From NCBI GenBank assembly GCA_002392285.1, contig DGGR01000006.1, forward strand, positions 1 to 32,000: a stretch of DNA of 32,000 nt, in the 5' to 3' direction. The notes below the pieces were generated by a model. It did not search any database, was not told the DNA's origin, and saw only the letters and a list, made by a program, of their open reading frames with translations. Origin of the DNA: Verrucomicrobia bacterium UBA3869. Lineage in GTDB: Bacteria; Verrucomicrobiota; Verrucomicrobiia; Opitutales; UBA9783. Of this stretch, positions 3,709-32,000 are shown in pieces. The position numbers and the translations under genes are program-made. Within the stretch, counting starts at the first letter, position 1, and each line of letters opens with the position of its first letter.

Positions 3709-5664
3709 TTATCTCAAACGCCTTTGGATGTTTTGTTCGATTGCGGTTTTAATCGCTTCAAGTTGCTCCTTAACGCTTTGTTGGGCAGCACTTACATCCC
3801 CATTGCTAACTGGGGCTGTCCCGAACAGATACCATTTGATTTTAGGTTCAGTTCCGCTGGGGCGCACAGCTACTTCAAAGTTATTGGCTAGGCGGAATCG
3901 GATAAAGTCGGCTTTGGGAACTTGTTCGCCATCTTCATCGCTTTCATTGTGTTCGTTGAGATAATCGATGGTTTCTTTAACCGCCTGTTGTGCAATGGTA
4001 GCTGGAGGTTGTTGTCGATAAGAGTGCATCAAAGCTTGAATGCTTGCCATACCCTCTGACCCTTCAAACGTATGGCTTAACAACGCCTCTTTGAAATAAC
4101 CATACTTTCGATAAATGTTATTGAGGTAATCGGAAAAGGTGATTCCTTCGCGCTTGAAGCATGCAATCAGTTCGTAAGCCATCAAGGTAGCTGCATTCCC
4201 ATCCTTATCCCGAACTGCATCATTGGCCAAAAATCCACCGCTTTCTTCGGCTGACAACAGAAGAGCAGTTGAATGGCGCAGTAGGTTGTTAAATCGGGCT
4301 TCAGGTGTGCATCGCATATAATCAACCTGAATGCCTTGTGTGGCTCGTTCATGCTGCAACCATTGCTGTTCATAACGGAGCAACTTACCCCCAATCCACT
4401 TAAAGCCCGTGTGGGTGTTGATGCAACGGATTCCATTGGCATTTGCAATAGCCTCGAGCAAGGGGGTCGTTACAAAGGATTTGATGATCGCAAGCTTAGC
4501 GCCTTTGGAAGGAATACGCCCTAATTTCATGAGCGTGGTTAAACGGTATTCAGCCAATAGCACGGCAATGGTATTGCCGCTTAACAGTTGCCATTGCCCT
4601 TGCGCATCCTTCAGCATCATTGCCATGCGATCCCCATCCGGATCGGTTGCAATAATACCATCTGCCTGGCTTTTTTTGGCTTCCTCCAACGCAACGGTCA
4701 ATGCGTTTGGGTTACTGGGGTCAAGCGTGGTCAGGTTAGGGAATGCGCCGTTGAATGCTTTTTGCGATTCGACAATTTGAAATGACCGGCTTAGCTCTTT
4801 CATCAGAGGCATGATGCAAACCGAGCCAGTGCCATGCAATGGCGTATAAACCACCTGGGGAGCGCAGCTTTTGTCCGCCAACAATTGAGTGTCTAATAGG
4901 ACGCTTTTGCAGGTTTCACGATACGCTTGTTCAACGTTTTCGGGGATATAGAAACAGCCGTCGATGGAGGGCGTTAAAAAGGGAGGAGTGGCTTCGTAAG
5001 GTACTTGTTCGATTGACTTGATAATGTCCTCTGCACAGGAACCATTGATTTGCGCGCCATCTTCTAAATATACCTTATAGCCGTTATCGTGAAAGGGATT
5101 GTGGCTGGCGGTAATCATAACGCCTGCTGTAGCTCTTAGATAGCGTACCGAAAAACTTAATTGGGGCGTTGACCGTGGACCATTAAAAATATAAACGATT
5201 CCGCCTAATTTTAACCAAGTCGATGCGGTGAGTTCGCAAAAGTGTTTTGAAAAATAACGTGAATCGTAAGAAATAACCAAGGATGGGGGGCGCGGGTAAT
5301 CGCTAAAATGATGTTTGCAATAAGCGAATAGGCCCAGGGTCGCTCGTATAACGTTAAAATCGTTGATGCAGTAAGTCCCAACAGCTGCATGCTGGTAGGT
5401 ATTGCCTGATTTTTCTGCGCTTGTACTGATCGAACCGATGGTGCGTCCGCGCATTCCAGCTGTTCCAAACGCAATGATTTTGAAAAATCGTTCGTTTAAC
5501 TCATGCCATTGCTGCTGCTCAATGAGCTCACGTAAACTATCTGACGCCCAATTGGGCAAGCCAGGCATAGCAAGAAATTGGCAAATAAATTGAGCGGCCG
5601 ATGAGGAGAGTTGATGGTTATGAAGTGCTTCTTCGACGGAAGCGGTTACATTACGATGCGTCAT
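3709..5664 (-). CDS. Alpha-D-phosphohexomutase (phosphoglucomutase/phosphomannomutase family)
   Basis: All four family loops are present: the catalytic Ser loop TASHNPFHDNGYK, the Mg loop ATDPDGDR, the sugar loop AEESGG and the phosphate loop RPSGTEPKIK. The start overlaps the upstream gene by 14 nt (5651-5664). Confidence 0.9.
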   Translation of the reverse strand: MTHRNVTASVEEALHNHQLSSSAAQFICQFLAMPGLPNWASDSLRELIEQQQWHELNERFFKIIAFGTAGMRGRTIGSISTSAEKSGNTYQHAAVGTYCINDFNVIRATLGLFAYCKHHFSDYPRPPSLVISYDSRYFSKHFCELTASTWLKLGGIVYIFNGPRSTPQLSFSVRYLRATAGVMITASHNPFHDNGYKVYLEDGAQINGSCAEDIIKSIEQVPYEATPPFLTPSIDGCFYIPENVEQAYRETCKSVLLDTQLLADKSCAPQVVYTPLHGTGSVCIMPLMKELSRSFQIVESQKAFNGAFPNLTTLDPSNPNALTVALEEAKKSQADGIIATDPDGDRMAMMLKDAQGQWQLLSGNTIAVLLAEYRLTTLMKLGRIPSKGAKLAIIKSFVTTPLLEAIANANGIRCINTHTGFKWIGGKLLRYEQQWLQHERATQGIQVDYMRCTPEARFNNLLRHSTALLLSAEESGGFLANDAVRDKDGNAATLMAYELIACFKREGITFSDYLNNIYRKYGYFKEALLSHTFEGSEGMASIQALMHSYRQQPPATIAQQAVKETIDYLNEHNESDEDGEQVPKADFIRFRLANNFEVAVRPSGTEPKIKWYLFGTAPVSNGDVSAAQQSVKEQLEAIKTAIEQNIQRRLR

Positions 5665-7477
5665 GCAAATACAATCCCTGTAAGGTTTTAGGTTTTGGAT
5701 CCAGCTGTTTCCAGGCTTGAATGAAATCTACTTGATTATCAGCAAATAACGGACCAATTTCCATGAGAGGTGTCGGCAAATTCGTTGAAGACTCGCTCTC
5801 GCTAGCACTGACTTCAAGCGATTCGCCAGCTGCTTGGAGCCACCGATGCCAGCGATTAATTTGGTCGCGCTGACAGGTTTCGAGCGTATCCTTGCCGACA
5901 GCATTTTTAACCGGACTAAACTCATCCTTGCGGTCTACTTCCCATAAAAGCGGACGGGTAGCGACCGGTAATACGTCAAAAATGAACTGTTCTAACTTAT
6001 GACCTTCGGTTGTGTAGGTCGTTTGAGATTGAGGGTCCCAAATAGGTATTTTTTTCCGACACACATGATAAGGGAGTGCCAATTGCGCGCATTTTTGAAT
6101 AAATTCGGTTGTAATCAGATGGATTCCAGTGTTGCCAAAGCGGTAACGAAGCGCGCCTGTTGCGGTCACTTCTTGCGATAAGGCTTCTGGAAATTGATTG
6201 TATTCAATCAGCCGCAATTGATCGGCGTCCTGTACCAACAATCCTACCCGTTCTTGCGGGTCGGTTTTAACCACTACTTTGGTCGAAAAAGAGGATTGGG
6301 ATAAGCAGTGAGTGCCTAAAAACAGGGGGTCGTCCAAATGAATCAGGGGATTATCTACCTGAAAATAATAAATCGATGTAATTCCTAGGGATTTGAAAAG
6401 CTCGATGTATCCAGCATGTTCTAAGGCTTTAAACAACCCACCATGTCCATTGGGTAGAAAACAAATGTTGCCATCTGCTTTTAAAGCGCACTGACCATCG
6501 TTCAAAAACGCAGGAATGCTTCCTTGTTTGAAAAAGTGAATATAATGCGGGTCGTACCACGCTTGTTTGGCAAATGCGATTTGCGTAGCGGTATCGGTTT
6601 CTTCACTGGTCATAATAAACCAATGGAAAGGGCGTTGGTAGCGGCGTTGAAGCGCTTTTAGCTTTTCGGCAAAAACCTGATAAAGCGGTTTGTGCTGTAG
6701 AGGGGTTACAGGAACCAACCCTTTGGGGCCGTTAAATCCTAAGCGAGAGCCTAATCCACCCGCGACGGTTAAAAACGCAACGGATCCCTTACTGAAGCAA
6801 TCGATTCCTGCTTGTAACGTGCTTTGGGGTTTATATCCCTGAGCTGCTAGGGTGTCGGGATGAAGGCTGGTTGGCTCAACCCAATGCGTTCCATCCAATT
6901 CCTCAGCAGTTTCGCTTAGTGTGTTGATTAAGCGCTTCCATTCGTTCAAGGGTACTTGTTGCGCCGAAGACCAAAAATGCTGCTGTTGGTCGGGATTTAA
7001 GCACTTCAGCAGCTCATTAATAGAAGGATTGAGTTCCTTGAAAGCCGTTTGAAATGCCGATGGGGTATCAAAAAAAGAATCGTTAACGGAGTTCATTAGC
7101 ATTGGGTGCTTCCAGGAATTGTGGGGAGCGCTTTCAGGCAAAGACCGATCAACTTCTTGTAACAAGGCAAAGGTACGGTGAGCTTTTTGCAGTTCCTTAT
7201 CCCATACGAACGAAAGCCGTGGGGTTTGTTTCATCCGCACTTCTTTCCCAATAGCGTCCTGTATGTTTTTGCGGAGTTTGATGAGCAACTTAAGTGCTTG
7301 TTCTTTCTGCTCTATTTGATAGACGGAAAAATAGACGTCAGCGACTTTTAAGTTATCCGAAGCGGTCACGCGTGTAATAGTGATACTCATGGCTTCCGAT
7401 GCGTAATGTTTAAGCAAATAATCGCCAATAACCCGTTTGAGTAACTCATTCACCCGAATGATGCGCAAATTGGTCAT
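5651..7477 (-). CDS. rbfA: In-frame fusion of an N-terminal ribosome-binding factor A (about 110 aa) to a C-terminal UDPGP-family UDP-sugar/UDP-GlcNAc pyrophosphorylase (eukaryote type)
   Basis: The start is set at the ATG at 7477-7475, which forms an ATGA overlap with the infB stop. The RbfA part reads LRIIRVNELLKRVIGDYL...VADVYFSV...TPRLSFVWD. There is no stop codon before the UDPGP part, which carries LTVAGGLGSRLG, MTSEET, PNGHGG and YFQVDNPL. Internal ATGs at 7102 and 7096 are preceded by GGAAG. Confidence 0.8.
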   Translation of the reverse strand: MTNLRIIRVNELLKRVIGDYLLKHYASEAMSITITRVTASDNLKVADVYFSVYQIEQKEQALKLLIKLRKNIQDAIGKEVRMKQTPRLSFVWDKELQKAHRTFALLQEVDRSLPESAPHNSWKHPMLMNSVNDSFFDTPSAFQTAFKELNPSINELLKCLNPDQQQHFWSSAQQVPLNEWKRLINTLSETAEELDGTHWVEPTSLHPDTLAAQGYKPQSTLQAGIDCFSKGSVAFLTVAGGLGSRLGFNGPKGLVPVTPLQHKPLYQVFAEKLKALQRRYQRPFHWFIMTSEETDTATQIAFAKQAWYDPHYIHFFKQGSIPAFLNDGQCALKADGNICFLPNGHGGLFKALEHAGYIELFKSLGITSIYYFQVDNPLIHLDDPLFLGTHCLSQSSFSTKVVVKTDPQERVGLLVQDADQLRLIEYNQFPEALSQEVTATGALRYRFGNTGIHLITTEFIQKCAQLALPYHVCRKKIPIWDPQSQTTYTTEGHKLEQFIFDVLPVATRPLLWEVDRKDEFSPVKNAVGKDTLETCQRDQINRWHRWLQAAGESLEVSASESESSTNLPTPLMEIGPLFADNQVDFIQAWKQLDPKPKTLQGLYLHDAS

Positions 7478-9651
7478 AATTCCGGCAAACTTGAAACCTT
7501 TTTGTAGCATTCAATCAAATCACCCTCTTGGCAATCGGATGCAGCGTCTTCCAATCCAATTCCACATTCGGTTCCGGATTTGACTTCTGCCACATAATCC
7601 TTGAAGTGTTTGAGGGTATATGCTTTGGTTTCGGTAATGATTTTCCCTTTGCGAATCAGGCGGACAAATGCATCGCGAACGATTTGCCCTGATACCACCA
7701 TACATCCAGCAATCGTACCTTTGGATAAAGTAATGACCTTACGGATTTCAGCAGACCCAAGCTTGGTTTCGCTCCATTCTGGTTCTAGCAATTCACGCAT
7801 GGCATTTCTTACCTGCTCAATAAGTTCGTAGATAATGTTATGCTGAATCATGCGCACGCCCTTTTGTTTAGCTGCGGCTTGCACTCCATTGGCTGGTTTG
7901 GTGTTGAATCCAACGATAATCGCTTTACCTGCATGAGCGGTTTGAATATCGTTGAGCGTAATTTGTCCGACGCGGGTATCGATAATATTGAGCGCTACCT
8001 TATCGCTATGAATGCCCTTTAGGCAGGCTTCTAGCGCCTCTAAACTACCATGGACGTCGGAACGAAGTAGAACTTTCAAAGTTTTTTGCTGCTGGGTTTC
8101 CATAGCAGCCATCAAATCATCAATGCTGGAAATTTTATGAACATTGTTGCTTTGATTCTGCTTCAGTTCGCGTTCACATGCTTCTGCTTCCTTCCGGGCT
8201 TCTTTTTCGTTTTTAGAGCCTCGGAAGGTACAGCCTGCAGAAGGCATGGTGACCCATCCCGTAATTTGAACGGGTGTTGCCGGTGTAGCTTGAGCCATGC
8301 GCTTGCCATGTTCATCCAACAAACAGCGAACCTTGCATACATGAGTACCACTAACAAGGGCATCTCCTGGCTTTAACGTTCCGCTGGTGATAATGGCGGT
8401 TGTTACAATCCCTTGACCCTCTTCCGTGCGGGATTCAACCACTACACCTTCCGGTGTTCCTTTAGGATTGGCTTTTAATTCCATCATTTCAGCCTGCAAT
8501 AACACCAACTGGAGTAATTTATCAAGGTTGGTCCCTTTGAGAGCCGAAATTTCGGTGCATAGCGTATCGCCTCCCCATTCTTCTGGAGCAATCCCGTTTG
8601 CTTGCATCTGTTGTTTAATGCGATCAATGTTGGCGCCCTTAACATCCATTTTGTTGATGGCAACCACCACAGGTACATTTTCTTTCTGTGCCAATTGCAG
8701 GGATTCTTTGGTTTGAGGCATGAAGCCATCATCAGCCGCAACCACCAAAATAATGATGTCGGTTACGGTTGCTCCGCGTTGGCGGATATTTGAAAATACA
8801 GCATGTCCCGGAGTATCGAGGAAGGTAATCTTTTTCCCTTCCACCTCTACTTGATAAGCTCCAATGTGCTGGGTGATTCCACCGGCTTCTTTGGCTGCCA
8901 CATTGGCTTTACGCAGGGTGTCTAATAGGGTGGTTTTCCCATGGTCGACGTGGCCTAAAATGCACACAATGGGTGGGCGTGGCTCTAAATGATCGGCCGG
9001 TTCAACTTTGGGTTTAACAGGGACCGGTTGAACGTTGCGTTCCTGAGAACGGCGTTTGGTTTCAACCGTAAAGTGATACTTGTCTGCTAGTACCTTTAGG
9101 GCATTTTCATCCAAAACCTGACCCATGGATGCAAAAATCTTTTGATCCATTAAATCCCTAATGAGGGTAAAGGGCTTAACCTCTAATAGGTTAGCTAGTT
9201 CGGTTAAGGTAATTGGGGGCTTAATGACCCGGTTTTGCTCCATTTTGGCTGCATCCTTGTTGGCAATCGAACCTGCTGCGCTTGGTGTATTTTCGGGCTT
9301 TGCAACAGCTTTTGGGGCGGTCGCTGGTGCGGGGCGAGCAGCGATGGGTGCAGCCGGCGCAAAACTTTTCTTAAATGCATTTAAGGCAGTTATGGATTGA
9401 GAACCTCCTAGGTTTTTAGGGGAGGCTATTCGTACAGGAGCGCTTCCTATTAAAGGTTTTTTGATCGTAGGCGAAGCAACATGGGTTGATTGAGCATTGC
9501 TTTTCACCTTCTTCAATAACGCATTTGCATCGGTATCCGATAGGGTAGAAGCTGTCTCTGGCAGTGCAATACCGTACTGTTTAATCAATAAGCGGACACT
9601 TTTAATATCCTTATGCAGTTGATGAGCTAATTGATAGATGCTAACGGTCAT
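7474..9651 (-). CDS. infB: Translation initiation factor IF-2
   Basis: The G-domain motifs are [17 protein letters not shown] and NKMD. The N-terminal region is Ala/Pro-rich and low in complexity. The gene sits in the canonical position after nusA. Confidence 0.97.
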
Positions 9652-12569: not shown

Positions 12570-14075
12570 GTGGAGGAGACTAGTCAGTTTTCAAAGCTTA
12601 GGGGAATCTTTTTTCCTATCTATGCTTATGAGCTCAAAAAAATCGTTCCTTTAGCTTGTATTTTATTCTTTTCGCTTTTTAACCATTATTGTCTCAAAAA
12701 CATCAAGGATTCTTTGGTGGTAACAGCGGTGGGGGCGGAAGCAATTGCCTTTATCAAATTGTTTTTGGTGCCGCCGGCAGCGATTTTATTCATGTTGGTG
12801 TATACCAAGGTCAGCGATCGCTTGAAGAACGAGCATCTGTATTATGCAACTTTGGGTTCGTTTGTTAGCTTTTTTGTCCTATTTGTATTGGTTTTGTACC
12901 CCCTAAAGAACTATGTGTGTCCATCGGCGGACAGCATCACTCGGCTTCAAACGCAATTCCCATCGTGTGGTTTGGCGTTTGCGCTTATTGGGGTTTGGCC
13001 TTATGCGCTGTTCTTTATCTTTGCAGAATTGTGGAGTACGTTTATTTTGTCGCTTTCGTTTTGGCAATTTATGAACCAAATTACGGAGTTGCAGGAAGCA
13101 AAGCGTATTTATGGGGTTTTGTTGTTATTAGGGCAGGGAGCGGTAACGATTTCAGGAGGGGTTGGCTTTATCGCTTCAAATATCCGTGAAAAGGTGTCCT
13201 GTGCTGATCCTTGGCAAATAACGCTTTATTGGCTGATTGGGTCAGTGACCGTAACCAGCATTTTGTCGATGTGCATTTATCATTGGATTTATCGACATGT
13301 TTTGACCGACAAACGATTTTACAATAAGCCGGAATTGCCCGGATTTCACGTAAAAGATAAAAAGAAAAGTAGCCTTTGGAACAGCTTAAAGGTGGTTGTG
13401 CGTTCGCATTATGTTCGCTTACTCATCTTCTTGGTATTCTGTTATAGCGTCTGCGATAACATCTTAGAGAATTTCTGGAAACATGCAGTTAAGGTTATTT
13501 ATCCCAACATCAACGATTATAATTCCTTTATGAGCGCGTACACGTTTATATACGGTATACTGTCTATGGGTGTGGTGCTCATTACCGGCTATATATTCCG
13601 GCGATTCCAATGGGGAGTTGGGGCTATGCTAACTCCTATGGTTGTGTTGGTGGGGGGTGTTTGCTTATTTCTGTCGTTTTTGGGCGAACAGTTCTTGTCG
13701 GGGAGCGTGGGAATGGTGGTAGGAATTCAAACGACCATTGTGTATGTTGGATTGATAACGTTAGTTCTTGATAAAGGGTTTAAAATGTCCTTTTTCGATA
13801 TGAGCAAAGAGATGGCGTTTATCCCCTTGGATGATGAGCTTAAGGTAAAAGGTAAGGCAATTACGGATGTGTTTGGTTATCGCTTTGGAAAATCTTTTGG
13901 TTCGGGCTTACAGGTGATTCTGTTGTCCTTGGTAAGCGCTTTATCAGGAGTTAAGGCAACCTACGAAAGCATTGCGATCTATGCGTTTGTGGTATTTTTA
14001 ACCTGTGCGACCGTGTGGGTTATTTCGGTGTTCCGGTTGAATCGCAAAATTCAAAGAAGTCGAGAATTATCCTAA
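12570..14075 (+). CDS. tlc: TLC-family nucleotide transporter (ATP/ADP translocase type, as in Chlamydiae, Rickettsiales and plastids)
   Basis: The start is GTG. The N-terminus FSKLRGIFFPIYAYELKKIVPL...NIKDSLVV matches, from memory, the conserved start of chlamydial Npt and rickettsial Tlc proteins. The 501 aa contain about 12 hydrophobic segments. Confidence 0.85.
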   Translation: MEETSQFSKLRGIFFPIYAYELKKIVPLACILFFSLFNHYCLKNIKDSLVVTAVGAEAIAFIKLFLVPPAAILFMLVYTKVSDRLKNEHLYYATLGSFVSFFVLFVLVLYPLKNYVCPSADSITRLQTQFPSCGLAFALIGVWPYALFFIFAELWSTFILSLSFWQFMNQITELQEAKRIYGVLLLLGQGAVTISGGVGFIASNIREKVSCADPWQITLYWLIGSVTVTSILSMCIYHWIYRHVLTDKRFYNKPELPGFHVKDKKKSSLWNSLKVVVRSHYVRLLIFLVFCYSVCDNILENFWKHAVKVIYPNINDYNSFMSAYTFIYGILSMGVVLITGYIFRRFQWGVGAMLTPMVVLVGGVCLFLSFLGEQFLSGSVGMVVGIQTTIVYVGLITLVLDKGFKMSFFDMSKEMAFIPLDDELKVKGKAITDVFGYRFGKSFGSGLQVILLSLVSALSGVKATYESIAIYAFVVFLTCATVWVISVFRLNRKIQRSRELS

Positions 14076-21155: not shown

Positions 21156-21184
21156 GTGAGTTTTTCGGTCGATTGTTAAGAATA

Positions 21185-22255
21185 ATGAATAAGATACGCT
21201 TGCCAAGGTTTATTGCATGGGTATTGTTGGGGCTATTCCCAATGGGAGCCTTACAAGCAGCGACTATTCATGCGTTAGCAGATGCAGCAAGAGCGGAGGT
21301 CGCTGATAAAGTTAAAGAAAAGCAAGAAGTAGAAAAGGTTTTCGCAGCCGCTGAAAAACCTGCACAGCCACATCCGGTTGAGCAGGAGGTTCCTAAAGTA
21401 CCTGCAAAAGCAACCGCGCCGGTTGATTCATTTGCGATAAAAGCTGCTCAGGTTAATGATAAGGTTATTTTTTGTAATGAGGTGTATGACCGTATGAATG
21501 CTTGGAATGTGTCGTACGCTAAAGCATTGGATAGCTTGATCGAAGCACAGCTCGTTTTACAGTATTTCGAAAAGAATAAAGGAAAGATTCCTGAAGCCCA
21601 TATTGAGTTGGAAATGGAAGGAATCGAGGAGAAAAATTTCAAAGGGGATCGTAGCCGTTTGCATCAAGCGTTGAGCAGCGAAGGGAAATCCTTATACGGC
21701 GTTAAAGAAAACATCCGCAATTCCATTATTATTGATGTTGTACGCGGACAAATTATGCGCGAAGGAACTAATGCGGCTCCTAAGAAGATTCGTCGGTATT
21801 ATGATACCCATTTGGATCAATTTAAAGTTAATGCGCGCTACTGCATCCAACACAGCGGGTTTAAAGATTCTGACAGTATTCAAACGGATAACGGAGAAAT
21901 GACCAAGGGTGATTATTTCCGAAAATTATTGATGAAGAAGATGGAGCTAGCTAAGATGCAAAAGTTGTTAGATAGCTTTAAAAACAAGCCGGTTTGGTAT
22001 GATGAAACGGAACTTGATCCGGAGCTATGCAAATTACCCGTTGGTGGTCATACGCAGTATCAAAAGAGTGGCGATCTATGGGTGGTGAGTACGCTGGTAG
22101 ATAAGCAAGAAGCTTATGTAAAATCTTATACGGATGTTTATACCGAAATTGAACGTTATTTAAAGCGGCAAAATGGGCAAAAGCGTTATCGTGATTTCAT
22201 AGAACAGTTGCGCAATGACGCTTCGATTGAAATTTATCCGCAGCCTGCTCATTAA
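21185..22255 (+). CDS. Secreted SurA/PpiD-like periplasmic chaperone candidate with a degenerate or absent parvulin domain
   Basis: The start is set at the ATG at 21185, since the track start is a TTG. The signal peptide reads MNKIRLPRFIAWVLLGLFPMGALQAA. An Ala/Pro/Glu-rich linker follows. The next segment resembles a SurA N-terminal domain (AAQVNDKVI...LDSLIEAQLVLQYFEKNKGKI...EIE). The assignment is by pattern only. Confidence 0.4.
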   Translation: MNKIRLPRFIAWVLLGLFPMGALQAATIHALADAARAEVADKVKEKQEVEKVFAAAEKPAQPHPVEQEVPKVPAKATAPVDSFAIKAAQVNDKVIFCNEVYDRMNAWNVSYAKALDSLIEAQLVLQYFEKNKGKIPEAHIELEMEGIEEKNFKGDRSRLHQALSSEGKSLYGVKENIRNSIIIDVVRGQIMREGTNAAPKKIRRYYDTHLDQFKVNARYCIQHSGFKDSDSIQTDNGEMTKGDYFRKLLMKKMELAKMQKLLDSFKNKPVWYDETELDPELCKLPVGGHTQYQKSGDLWVVSTLVDKQEAYVKSYTDVYTEIERYLKRQNGQKRYRDFIEQLRNDASIEIYPQPAH

Positions 22256-23485: not shown

Positions 23486-24031
23486 TTATAATTCTAATGC
23501 TTTGTACGCTAAGGGATTTTTGTCCGGTTCATGTTCCACAATGTAAAAAACAGTGCTGTTTTGTACAGGAACAACCGTAGCTTTTTGAGGAATTTCCAGC
23601 TGTTGATCGGATATAGGATAAGTTTGGTTCGAACGCTTATCGCGTAGCGTTGCGGTAAAACGATTGGGAATCGAGGTATAGCGGTTGAGCTTGAGTATAT
23701 AACACACGCCGCTCGTTGAGCTTTTAACCTCAAGGGAATCACTATCCTTTAGGTAACGAAGCAAAGTGATATCCTTATAAGTTTCTTTAAGTGATAGCAT
23801 ACCTACCGAACCATCATCAGATTTGATAATAAATTGCGTACCTTTGACTCCCGCAATGCATCCCTGATAACGATAGGGATAATGAGCTGGCTGAAAGTCT
23901 TCTAGGACAAAGTGTTGTTGATTTTTATAGGTTTTAAGGGCGTCGAAAAGGTCGTCAGCGTGTACATGCGGATATCCTAAGACCATTAGGGCTAAAATGA
24001 AATAGCAGCGGGATCGGTTGAAGTGCATCAT
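23486..24031 (-). CDS. Hypothetical secreted protein (181 aa)
   Basis: The signal peptide reads MMHFNRSRCYFILALMVLGYPHVHA, with cleavage predicted before DD. I recognise no motif. The gene lies 4 nt downstream of the GspE-like ATPase on the same strand, and there is no competing ORF. Confidence 0.5.
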   Translation of the reverse strand: MMHFNRSRCYFILALMVLGYPHVHADDLFDALKTYKNQQHFVLEDFQPAHYPYRYQGCIAGVKGTQFIIKSDDGSVGMLSLKETYKDITLLRYLKDSDSLEVKSSTSGVCYILKLNRYTSIPNRFTATLRDKRSNQTYPISDQQLEIPQKATVVPVQNSTVFYIVEHEPDKNPLAYKALEL

Positions 24032-29665: not shown

Positions 29666-30897
29666 TTCCTAAAAAACTTTAAGGTTCGTTCAATGGATTG
29701 TGCCAAATGGTCTACATCTTCGCAGGTATTATAAATTCCAAAAGAAGCCCGCAAAACCCCTCCGTTTAAGCATTGTAAGCGGCGAATCAAGGGTTGACTG
29801 CAATGGTAACCGCCGCGTATCGCAACATTATCGTCGCTCATCAATTGCGCTGCGTCGTGCGGATGTACGCCATCCAAAATAAAGGGTACGACCGCTGTTC
29901 GGTGTTTAGGATGACCTAAAACCTGTACTTGCGGGATGGATTTGAGGGTTTTTTCGGTATAGCGAATGACGGAATCTTCGTAAGCCGTGATTGCGTCCCA
30001 TGAAAACTGTTGTAGGTAATCGATGGCTGCTCCCATCCCGATGATATCGGCAATAGGCGGTGTGCCTGCTTCGAAGCGAAAAGGAACATCCGCTGGGGTA
30101 AACCCTTCCGCTGTTACCTCTTGCATCATGGTTCCTCCGCCCTGATAGGGGGGTAGGGTTTCAAGCAAGGCTTGTTTCCCGTAAAAAAATCCAGAACCGG
30201 TTGGTCCATACATTTTGTGCCCCGATGCGACCAAAAAATCGCAATCCAAGCTGCGAACTGAAATCGGTAGGTGCGCGACGGTTTGAGCTGCATCGACAAT
30301 CACCAGCGTTCCGTTAGCATGAGCGCGTGCAATGATTGCTTTCATATCCGGTGTGGTGCCTAAGACATTGGATACATGGGTTAGGGTTAACAGTTTTGTT
30401 TTTGGAGTTAACAACCGATCGAGCGTTGCGAGTTCCAACTCACCTTCCGCATTGATAGGGAACAGCTTTACCTTAATTCCCCGCTTATATTGCTGTATCT
30501 GCCAAGGGATTAAGTTGGAATGATGCTCCAGCTCGGATACAATTACCTCATCGCCAGGCTTAAAATAGCGCTGGCCAATAATTTCTGCGAGGCAATTGAG
30601 CGCTTCGGTAGCGCCGCGGGTAAATACAATTTCGTTTGGCGAAGCGGCATCGATAAAATGAGCTACGCGTGATCTTACCCCCTCATAGGCTTCGGTTGAA
30701 CGTTCGCCCCATGTATAGAAGCTGCGATGTACGTTAGCGTTATAATGAAGATAAAAATCACTGATGGCATCAATAACCGACCGGGGCTTTTGGGTGGTTG
30801 CAGAATTATCCAGATAAGCAATCGGCTGGTTTTTCGAATTGCAATACCCTAGCGCAGGAAAATCCTTGCGGATTTTATGGATATCCAATGGCTGCAT
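29662..30897 (-). CDS. sufS: Cysteine desulfurase, SufS/Csd class (PLP-dependent)
   Basis: The motifs are LDNSATTQKP, ELEHHSN, the PLP-lysine motif SGHKMYGPTGSG and the catalytic Cys loop RGGYHCSQP. Confidence 0.9.
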   Translation of the reverse strand: MQPLDIHKIRKDFPALGYCNSKNQPIAYLDNSATTQKPRSVIDAISDFYLHYNANVHRSFYTWGERSTEAYEGVRSRVAHFIDAASPNEIVFTRGATEALNCLAEIIGQRYFKPGDEVIVSELEHHSNLIPWQIQQYKRGIKVKLFPINAEGELELATLDRLLTPKTKLLTLTHVSNVLGTTPDMKAIIARAHANGTLVIVDAAQTVAHLPISVRSLDCDFLVASGHKMYGPTGSGFFYGKQALLETLPPYQGGGTMMQEVTAEGFTPADVPFRFEAGTPPIADIIGMGAAIDYLQQFSWDAITAYEDSVIRYTEKTLKSIPQVQVLGHPKHRTAVVPFILDGVHPHDAAQLMSDDNVAIRGGYHCSQPLIRRLQCLNGGVLRASFGIYNTCEDVDHLAQSIERTLKFFRK

Positions 30898-30920
30898 GAT
30901 TAAATAAAATCTATTTGGTT

Positions 30921-30994
30921 TGGCTGCCCTGCAAGGATTCGAACCTTGACTAAATGAACCAAAATCACTTGTGCTACCATTACACCACTGGGCA
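30921..30994 (-). tRNA. tRNA-Gln (anticodon TTG), CCA encoded
   Basis: The reverse complement is TGCCCAG TG GTGT AATGGTA GCAC A AGTGA TTTTGGT TCATT TAGT CAAGG TTCGAAT CCTTG CAGGGCA G CCA. U1-A72 and discriminator G fit Gln identity. There is one A-A mismatch at 6:67. The tRNA ends 23 nt upstream of the sufS ATG. Confidence 0.85.
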
Positions 30995-31051
30995 TTAGAA
31001 CCTTACCCACTAAGATGGTTTTTCTCCTTTATCCCGTCAAGTAAATTTGTA

Positions 31052-31079
31052 TTGACCTGGGGAGAAGTGATTTTAGATA
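31052..31079 (+). promoter_or_regulatory. Putative promoter for the SemiSWEET-TPK pair
   Basis: TTGACC (31052-31057) is followed by a 16-nt spacer and TAGATA (31074-31079). A second -10-like TAGAAT lies at 31102-31107. This is by-eye matching only. Confidence 0.3.
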
Positions 31080-31125
31080 AAAACAATAAGCAAATAGCTT
31101 ATAGAATAGTTAATAATTTCCCCTT

Positions 31126-31380
31126 ATGATCGATACGATTGCTTGCAGTGTTGCATTTGTTACCACTATGATTGGTGTGGTGCCGCAAATTATTAAAGGA
31201 TACCGTACGAAATCCATGAAAGATGTATCGTTAGTGATGCTCTTAAATTGTTTACTTTGCTGTATTGCTTGGCTTATCCATGCAATGTATGTTGCAGATT
31301 ATACTCTCATGTGGAGCGAAGTGTTTTGTACCATCACCACGATTATCGCACTCATTCAAAAGCATCAATATGCTGCTTGA
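31126..31380 (+). CDS. SemiSWEET / PQ-loop family mini-transporter (84 aa, 3 TM)
   Basis: Three hydrophobic helices are present. The PQ motif sits at the end of TM1 in the canonical context (FVTTMIGVVPQIIKGYRTKSMKDVS). A conserved Trp lies in TM2 (IAWLIHAMY). The length is typical of bacterial SemiSWEETs. Confidence 0.75.
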   Translation: MIDTIACSVAFVTTMIGVVPQIIKGYRTKSMKDVSLVMLLNCLLCCIAWLIHAMYVADYTLMWSEVFCTITTIIALIQKHQYAA

Positions 31381-32000
31381 TTTAGAGCGCTATAAAAGTG
31401 TTTTGTGCTTACATGGCGATTTGCCATTGACGTGGCTAAAAAGCAGTACGCTGCCCATTATTGCAACCGATGGGGCGGCTAATGACTTAATTGCTGCTGG
31501 TATTTATCCTGCTATGATTATTGGGGATTGCGATAGTATTCATCCTGATTTACTCAAAACCTATCCTCATCGGCGAATTCAGGATCAAAATTCAACCGAT
31601 TTCGAGAAAGCCCTTCAGTATTTAGCCGAAACCAACCAACTTCCAACGATTATTACGGGAATCAACGGTGGATTTTTAGACCAAATCATTGCGAATATCG
31701 GCATTTTTGCTCGCACGGATGCGTTGTATTATTCGGACACCTTGTTGGGATGGGCCATGAATGAAGGAAGTCATAGCTTTACCTTCCCCCAAGATACCAA
31801 AATTTCTCTTTTTGGATGCCCACAAGCACTCATTACCAGTGAAGGCCTTCGGTGGGAATTGAAGCAGTCCCATTTAATCTTTGGCACATTCTGCTCCTCA
31901 TCCAATCGCGTACAAACTGCCCCATTACGCATAACCGTCCACAAAGGTAAGGTATTGGCCTTTGCCTACTGCAATCCGGTTATCGATGCCGGCAGTATCC
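31370..32000 (+). CDS. thiN: Thiamine pyrophosphokinase (TPK/ThiN), 3'-truncated by the window end
   Basis: This is my own translation from the ATG at 31370, open to position 32000. It reads MLLDLERYKSVLCLHGDLP...IIATDGAANDL...MIIGDCDSI...QDQNSTDFEKAL...GINGGFLDQ. The GD.DS and TDFE.A motifs are typical of TPK. The gene is absent from the ORF track because no stop falls in the window. It overlaps the SemiSWEET gene by 11 nt. Confidence 0.8.
   Translation, partial: MLLDLERYKSVLCLHGDLPLTWLKSSTLPIIATDGAANDLIAAGIYPAMIIGDCDSIHPDLLKTYPHRRIQDQNSTDFEKALQYLAETNQLPTIITGINGGFLDQIIANIGIFARTDALYYSDTLLGWAMNEGSHSFTFPQDTKISLFGCPQALITSEGLRWELKQSHLIFGTFCSSSNRVQTAPLRITVHKGKVLAFAYCNPVIDAGSI

Follow-up and report, generated by a model that had tools for sequence, protein, structure and literature searches.

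What would a SemiSWEET, a member of a family known for carrying sugars, be doing in an operon with a gene for thiamine pyrophosphokinase (TPK)? The question is raised by the end of a 32,000-nucleotide stretch of contig DGGR01000006.1 from Verrucomicrobia bacterium UBA3869 (hereafter the window), where the open reading frame (ORF) at 31126-31380 (+) encodes an 84-residue SemiSWEET-like protein, MIDTIACSVAFVTTMIGVVPQIIKGYRTKSMKDVSLVMLLNCLLCCIAWLIHAMYVADYTLMWSEVFCTITTIIALIQKHQYAA, and runs into the start of a TPK gene. The first-pass annotation of this DNA suggested that the small protein imports thiamine and that the kinase traps it. This idea gains support from a conserved pairing with TPK, from thiamine pyrophosphate (TPP) riboswitches in relatives and from fusion proteins, and we consider it probable that the protein is a SemiSWEET-fold facilitator of a distinct subfamily that has thiamine, not sugar, as its substrate. 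The case from comparative genomics appears well supported and stronger than the one first made, whereas the accompanying argument from an acidic pocket residue seems limited to the lineage of the window.

The 84-residue protein contains the motif VVPQIIKGYRTKS, with P20-Q21 as the PQ-loop hinge of transmembrane helix 1 (TM1), and its other key residues are T13, N41, C45, W49 (the pocket tryptophan) and E65 (at the position of the pocket asparagine). It scored above the cut-offs of the Pfam families PF04193 (PQ-loop; 33.3 bits, cut-off 22) and PF03083 (MtN3_slv; 25.7 bits, cut-off 23.7), and no Pnu/NMN_transporter family was among its Pfam matches at E<=1. The profile hidden Markov model comparison with the MtN3/SWEET, PQ-loop and Pnu families that the first-pass annotation had proposed thus returned the first two and not the third. 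SemiSWEETs were the sole sequence matches at E<0.01 in a phmmer search of the PDB, comprising 9kax, 4rng, 4x5m, 4qnc and point mutants of 4qnc (E values from 3.5e-6 to 2e-4). An AlphaFold2 monomer model based on 115 homologues had a mean predicted local distance difference test (pLDDT) score of 94 and helices at residues 2-28, 36-55 and 59-83. The best Foldseek matches of the model in the PDB were 4rng, 4qnc and 5uhs, with template modelling scores of 0.78-0.86 and root-mean-square deviations (rmsd) of 1.7-2.2 Å; SemiSWEET chains filled ranks 1-13 and made up 16 of the top 17, of which rank 17 was a poor superposition (rmsd 20.5). Lower matches included eukaryotic SWEET half-domains and cystinosin, and no Pnu structure was found among the Foldseek matches in the PDB. 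The ORF, the two Pfam families and the model therefore agree with the original description of an 84-residue, three-helix PQ protein. The alternative that the protein is a short PnuT was rejected, since it has no Pnu match in Pfam, consists of 84 residues in three helices and finds its fold matches among SemiSWEETs. Its alignment to the NCBIfam model NF037968 (SemiSWEET_2) runs from end to end yet scored 43.8 bits, under the curated cut-off of 80, which on this sequence criterion places it in a divergent subfamily.

The downstream neighbour is a genuine TPK. Its ORF scored 120.8 bits against the equivalog model TIGR01378 (cut-off 76.4), contains the motifs GDCDS and STDFEKAL, and matched both PF04263 (the catalytic domain; 64.5 bits, E=1.1e-17) and PF04265 (the B1-binding domain; 28.5 bits, E=1.2e-6). 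The full-length orthologue on the syntenic contig of a close relative (L001/L002) has 212 residues and is followed by ffh and pgpA. With the ATG at 31370, the earlier reading of an 11-nt overlap between the two genes is confirmed. No Shine-Dalgarno-like sequence precedes the TPK start, and it is therefore reasonable to infer that translation of the kinase is coupled to that of the transporter by termination-reinitiation. Both genes are under purifying selection, as synonymous codon differences from relatives outnumber non-synonymous ones: relative to L001 there are 17 and 9, respectively, in the SemiSWEET-like gene and 52 and 24 in the TPK gene, and relative to another close relative the SemiSWEET-like gene has 13 and 10.

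A word-indexed search with the single protein sequence found just three near-identical proteins, and HMMER, run exhaustively over 1.84 billion representatives instead, found 174 relatives at E<=1e-3. The NCBI protein HCI56779.1, 'hypothetical protein [Opitutae bacterium]', from a metagenome-assembled genome (MAG), is identical to the window protein, and the nearest relative (89% identity) is from an 'Opitutales' MAG from horse faeces. The best-scoring representative match, P0004 (122 residues), has the N-terminal half of a SemiSWEET twice, an internal repeat of ~60 residues that is probably an artefact of assembly or gene calling. Plasmid carriage was considered as a clue to transfer, and tblastn gave no match in PLSDB.

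Is the pairing with TPK conserved? Loci were surveyed in one genome per GTDB species with a peptide pattern from the TM2 signature described below (10-sequence alignment A2), which yielded 59 loci. By label (taxon labels of MAGs and loci are the depositors' own), these come from Holosporales/Holosporaceae, Rickettsiales/Rickettsiaceae/Midichloriaceae, approximately 15 Legionella species, Coxiellaceae, other Legionellales, unclassified Alpha- and Gammaproteobacteria, and one Chlamydiota MAG; with few exceptions, the carriers bear the labels of intracellular lineages. When all ORFs of the 59 loci were translated and searched with TPK sequences, 48 of the 59 species-level loci proved to have a TPK gene immediately after the SemiSWEET-like gene and in the same orientation. 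Legionella species with the pair include L. anisa, L. bozemanae, L. parisiensis, L. steelei, L. steigerwaltii and L. tucsonensis, among others. The TPK start appears to overlap the SemiSWEET stop in 44 of 47 loci, by 4-77 nt overall and by 4-35 nt in all but one of them. Conservation of the adjacency in relatives, or its fusion into one gene, had been put forward as a test of the thiamine idea, and both were found. In an all-against-all clustering of the neighbouring ORFs, TPK was the only neighbour family common to different lineages. A third conserved operon gene was also sought among these clusters and rejected, as the other neighbours reflect local synteny, such as rpsA upstream of the gene in Holosporales.

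The remaining 11 of the 59 relatives carry the gene without an adjacent TPK. In Holosporales, the order rpsA then SemiSWEET-like gene is seen at eight loci (L004, L006, L007, L008, L012, L014, L018 and L021); TPK follows in L004 and L006, but the neighbourhoods of the remaining six lack it. At the Holosporales loci that lack it, either TPK has been relocated or the pairing has been lost. No TPK was found near two canonical-type SemiSWEETs used as controls (P0025 and P0038). One of these, P0038, has a second MtN3-like gene as its tandem partner, the two being flanked by gatD and an HD-domain gene (L070:2501-3055 and L071:1725-2279) on a contig that looks archaeal, and it is possible that it forms with this neighbour another heterodimeric SemiSWEET, unrelated to thiamine.

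A further tie to thiamine lies upstream of the pair. In 30 loci, an RF00059 TPP riboswitch is located directly before the SemiSWEET gene on the same strand (56-73 bits, gathering score 54.3). All belong to the TPK-linked group, giving 30 of 48 linked loci versus none of the 11 unlinked ones (Fisher p=1.2e-4), and the carriers span Legionella, Coxiellaceae, other Legionellales and Gammaproteobacteria, Rickettsiales, other Alphaproteobacteria, and the Chlamydiota MAG. The aptamer match has 'cggaggaaaatgtg' or a near variant at its 3' end and takes in the Shine-Dalgarno sequence and the start codon of the SemiSWEET gene, as is usual where TPP represses translation. Because repression occurs at high TPP, such control would fit a role in uptake or salvage and speak against export.

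In two proteins the transporter and the kinase are joined. P0007 (319 residues) consists of a SemiSWEET domain (residues ~1-90), a linker of ~30 residues and a complete TPK. Its gene, always with the same neighbours, occurs on four contigs that represent three or more samples. P0321 (320 residues) is a second fusion, 56% identical to P0007, and both have the same four Pfam domains, which are PQ-loop/MtN3 and the two TPK domains (loci L062:4001-4960 and L063:4001-4960). The P0007 gene adjoins ankyrin-repeat and HIT genes and has no riboswitch upstream, and JGI names both fusions merely 'thiamine pyrophosphokinase'. TM1 and TM2 are joined by a basic loop, KGYRTKSMKD, and by the positive-inside rule the C-terminus of the SemiSWEET domain would be cytoplasmic, on the side where TPK must act. 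A fused 2:2 unit would be in keeping with the homodimeric state of both SemiSWEETs and TPKs.

If the substrate is thiamine, one may ask what has become of the sugar pocket. Its residues were mapped by HMMER alignments to LbSemiSWEET (4qnc), EcSemiSWEET (4x5m), TySemiSWEET (4rng) and BjSemiSWEET (9kax). W49 falls in the column of the pocket tryptophan (Lb W48, Ec W50) and is invariant in the 38-sequence alignment A1, and E65 falls in the column of the pocket asparagine (Lb N64, Ec N66), so the Ser-Glu that the first-pass annotation had assigned to this position by eye was correct. T13 occupies the column of Ec Thr15, which buttresses the pocket tryptophan in EcSemiSWEET (PMC4309421). According to Lee et al. 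2015, Trp50 and Asn66 line the EcSemiSWEET pocket, and sucrose uptake was significantly decreased by the N66A substitution (PMC4309421).

We define the TPK-linked SemiSWEET subfamily by a TPK gene directly downstream together with a 23-position signature, T13 [ST]14 G17 P20 Q21 K24 [KR]29 S30 D33 S35 M38 N41 [YFC]42 C45 S46 [AS]48 W49 [YH]52 G53 S64 N65 K79 Y82, the TM2 core of which is N41-x3-C45-S46-x-[AS]-W49. The window protein, with its adjoining TPK, fits 20 of the 23 positions, the exceptions being C46, A53 and E65. Characterised sugar SemiSWEETs do not have the signature; their residues are Met or Ile in place of N41 and Gly in place of C45. Since N41, C45 and W49 are spaced i, i+4, i+8, helical periodicity would place them on one face of TM2, that of the pocket tryptophan.

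The glutamate is a different matter. Of the 346 family rows of the profile alignment, 293 have N and 16 have E in the pocket-asparagine column, and the 16 with glutamate all come from the lineage of the window or from a single sister lineage. The earlier suggestion that an acidic residue here would suit a cationic substrate thus stands insofar as the glutamate is real, but it leaves the family unexplained, as members linked to riboswitches or fused to TPK keep the asparagine. For the same reason E65 was rejected as a determinant of thiamine specificity across the family. As judged from the alignment, it is a conserved trait of the Opitutae clade to which the window belongs.

The sister lineage (L064-L067) shares with the window and with L001-L003 the gene order PDDEXK nuclease, nifU, sufS, tRNA-Gln, SemiSWEET and TPK, and likewise has the 11-nt overlap, no riboswitch and Glu at position 65, at 50% identity to the window for the transporter and 49% for TPK. 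It has two tandem 84-residue SemiSWEET-like genes before TPK (L064:4001-5155, and likewise in L065-L067). The upstream copy A (P0024) has PM in place of PQ and no Pfam match, copy B is the one 50% identical to the window protein, and both have Glu in the pocket-asparagine column. The two copies may form a heterodimer.

How does the window pair compare with known systems? It is like PnuT-TPK in that the gene for a small, energy-independent facilitator lies beside that for the kinase of its vitamin, often behind a TPP riboswitch, in a scheme of diffusion plus trapping. Kinase co-localisation is a functional hallmark of the Pnu family that the window pair displays, but the resemblance is one of function only: a Pnu protein is a single chain with a 7-TM core and falls in the Pfam family NMN_transporter, whereas the window protein has 84 residues and three TM helices. 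The Pnu fold is distantly related to that of SWEETs. By analogy, then, the window protein can be regarded as a PnuT analogue that lies outside the Pnu family. PnuT of Shewanella woodyi acts purely as a facilitator; it transports thiamine but neither thiamine monophosphate (TMP) nor TPP and depends on the kinase for trapping (PMC5749112). With the sugar SemiSWEETs (4QNC, 4X5M/N, 4RNG and 9KAX), the window protein has in common its length, three-helix fold, PQ hinge, pocket tryptophan, the threonine that aligns with Ec Thr15, and Pfam membership. It differs from them in having N41 and C45 on the TM2 face and, in the window copy, Glu at the pocket asparagine, in scoring below the SemiSWEET_2 cut-off, and in the genetic ties of its group to TPK and TPP riboswitches instead of carbohydrate genes. 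ThiT, the S-component of an energy-coupling factor (ECF) transporter, and ThiBPQ are likewise bacterial thiamine importers, and ThiT genes are often controlled by TPP riboswitches; these systems differ in being ATP-driven and of high affinity, with unrelated folds and no pairing with TPK for trapping.

The same two-gene arrangement has been reported before. In one sentence and a figure panel, Jia et al. 2018 noted a TPK gene beside a SemiSWEET gene in Legionella cherrii, and they suggested non-sugar substrates (PMC5972207). Their paper contains no riboswitch, fusions, signature, distribution or experiment on the pair, and the window protein differs as a riboswitch-free E65 variant from Verrucomicrobiota. 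The first-pass statement that no thiamine-transporting SemiSWEET had been described must therefore be qualified, as the adjacency with TPK was already on record in L. cherrii; beyond that remark, no other link between SemiSWEETs and thiamine was found in the searchable literature (subscription-only papers lay outside this scope), and searches there for riboswitch with SemiSWEET/MtN3, or for COG4095 with thiamin, returned nothing relevant. Relatives are named in databases as 'SemiSWEET family (sugar) transporter', 'MtN3 and saliva related transmembrane protein', 'PQ-loop repeat-containing protein' or 'hypothetical protein', and none of the names says thiamine. A physiological role has been proven for no bacterial SemiSWEET (PMC5972207). 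Driscoll et al. 2017 stated Rickettsia to be without a recognisable importer of thiamine or thiamine diphosphate (ThDP) (PMC5615194).

A mechanism for thiamine uptake by the pair can be proposed from these comparisons. The transport unit would presumably be a homodimer of three-helix bundles, acting as a uniporter through which thiamine from the host cytosol or the environment would move down its gradient, with the membrane potential adding drive for a cationic substrate. The co-translated TPK would then convert thiamine in the cytoplasm into thiamine diphosphate, which would be unable to exit, and this metabolic trapping would make the flux unidirectional. In many relatives, the TPP riboswitch over the ribosome-binding site would turn the operon off when TPP is replete, a control that the window lineage either lost or never had. 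E65, standing in place of the pocket asparagine, may strengthen binding of the cationic vitamin, or it may serve in proton coupling.

Several other explanations of the pair have to be weighed against thiamine import, and three of them are disfavoured mainly because the constant partner, TPK, uses unphosphorylated thiamine only. One is that the cargo is a thiamine-related compound, such as hydroxymethylpyrimidine (HMP) or the thiazole precursor, a degradation product, or TMP or ThDP taken from the host. It is established from comparative genomics of the THI regulon that TPP riboswitches also control CytX, ThiW and HmpT, the E65 variant might mean a changed specificity, and Rickettsia is thought to require import of ThDP (PMC5615194). 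We nevertheless find such a cargo unlikely, as the neighbourhoods have no recurrent thiD, thiM or thiE-type salvage gene, TPK would be needless if ThDP were imported, and a fusion to TPK is sensible only if the cargo is the substrate of the kinase. That the protein is an ordinary SemiSWEET sugar uniporter, with TPK beside it by coincidence or through the operon packing of small genomes, would agree with the sugar cargo of all characterised SemiSWEETs, with the retained PQ hinge and pocket tryptophan, and with the NCBI name of relatives, 'SemiSWEET family sugar transporter'. It is extremely improbable in the face of an adjacency that recurs in otherwise unrelated contexts across labelled Alpha- and Gammaproteobacteria, Chlamydiota and Verrucomicrobiota, of the 30 riboswitches and the two fusions, of the low SemiSWEET_2 score (43.8 against 80), and of the missing pocket asparagine in the window copy, the residue whose replacement in N66A cut sucrose uptake by EcSemiSWEET (PMC4309421).

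The fusions and the tight translational coupling imply physical association, and they could also be explained if the small protein were no transporter at all but a membrane anchor or regulatory partner that places TPK at the membrane, for example beside another importer. A protein that only anchored TPK could do without the PQ hinge, the pocket tryptophan, the Asn/Glu position and T13, all of which are conserved under selection, and it would hardly be kept without an adjacent TPK, as the gene is in 11 relatives; we give this very little credence. The last alternative concerns how the protein works in the Opitutae, where N65E may have produced a proton-coupled or otherwise mechanistically different thiamine transporter, with a heterodimer of paralogues in the sister lineage. 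The glutamate is kept across lineages that are just 50% identical and in both tandem paralogues of L064-L067, and membrane-embedded carboxylates are well established as typical coupling sites of secondary transporters. The same residue could, however, do no more than bind thiamine through its cationic or aminopyrimidine part, and a change of mechanism, which seems to us quite unlikely, would refine the facilitator explanation and not replace it.

Thiamine facilitation by the window protein has points against it as well. The loci were retrieved with a pattern built from the signature, so the 81% adjacency holds for the subfamily and not for SemiSWEETs at large. The window copy deviates at three of the 23 signature positions, E65 among them, and its substrate could have shifted. 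No TPP riboswitch was found in its leader (Rfam scan of 30850-31450, E<=10) or in the leaders of the syntenic relatives L001 and L064, and the regulatory evidence for thiamine thus comes from relatives, the window itself giving none. Finally, a charged heterocycle would be a new kind of cargo for the pocket of a SemiSWEET dimer.

On balance we lean, with somewhat less assurance than for the window protein itself, towards a wider picture in which the subfamily is a new family of vitamin B1 transporters derived from a re-tuned SemiSWEET sugar pocket. Its cassette of transporter and TPK, with or without a TPP riboswitch, would be spread among labelled intracellular lineages of Pseudomonadota, Chlamydiota and Verrucomicrobiota and would supply the missing route of thiamine entry in Holosporales, many Rickettsiales, Coxiellaceae and a clade of Legionella. 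The Opitutae would have an acidic-pocket (N65E) version, which in the sister lineage comprises two paralogues and probably forms a heterodimer. What is new in this proposal is a SemiSWEET fold with a new class of substrate, in an arrangement analogous to PnuT-TPK. If it is true, the substrate range of the SWEET fold widens to a charged vitamin, and the related folds of Pnu and SemiSWEET have reached the same strategy of a facilitator plus a trapping kinase. It would also provide a concrete and testable explanation of how vitamin B1 reaches many obligate intracellular bacteria, and approximately 570 database proteins now named 'sugar transporter', 'MtN3/saliva-related' or 'hypothetical' would need re-annotation. 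To our knowledge, the 84-residue protomer would belong to the smallest vitamin importer yet proposed. Its size makes it an attractive model for a switch of specificity in a tiny pocket, for which the N-to-E variant is a natural experiment.

The features of the window that bear on the pair are collected in Table 1.

Table 1. Position, strand and extent of the transporter-kinase pair and associated features in the window.
Feature	Position	Strand	Remarks
SemiSWEET-fold gene of the TPK-linked subfamily, proposed thiamine facilitator	31126..31380	+	ATG to TGA, 84 aa
Thiamine pyrophosphokinase (TPK/ThiN)	31370..32000	+	Codons 1-210 of 212, cut by window end
Overlap, TPK ATG within last codons of SemiSWEET gene	31370..31380	+	11 nt
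Intergenic leader, presumed promoter and 5'UTR	30995..31125	+	131 nt, from tRNA-Gln (-) to SemiSWEET-like gene
tRNA-Gln (UUG), upstream boundary of the module	30921..30994	-	ARAGORN and Rfam
TLC-family NTP/NDP (ATP/ADP) translocase	12570..14075	+	Pfam PF03219, E=1.1e-136, full length

A scan of 30800-32000 for sigma-70-like promoters gave no site. The tRNA gene that bounds the module is at the same place in the relatives L001, L003 and L064, and upstream of it in the window lie sufS/nifU on the minus strand. The first-pass annotation had also mentioned an ATP/ADP translocase, and the full-length Pfam TLC match accords with it. Members of the TLC cluster are named 'NTP/NDP exchange transporter [Opitutales bacterium]', with relatives from horse faeces and other metagenomes, and in the sister lineage L064-L067 the gene after TPK, on the other strand, encodes a TLC translocase. 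The window translocase suggests an intracellular, perhaps protist-associated, verrucomicrobial lineage, and this host-dependent setting, together with the intracellular labels of most carriers, speaks for thiamine import.

Elsewhere in the window, two ORFs, at 21173-22255 (+; 360 residues) and 23486-24031 (-; 181 residues), had no Pfam match at E<=1e-5. An uninterrupted ORF of 619 residues at 5651-7510 (-) combines a ribosome-binding factor A domain (residues 16-116) with a UDP-glucose pyrophosphorylase domain (residues 242-537). It lies downstream of infB and nusA and appears to be an RbfA-UDPGP fusion.

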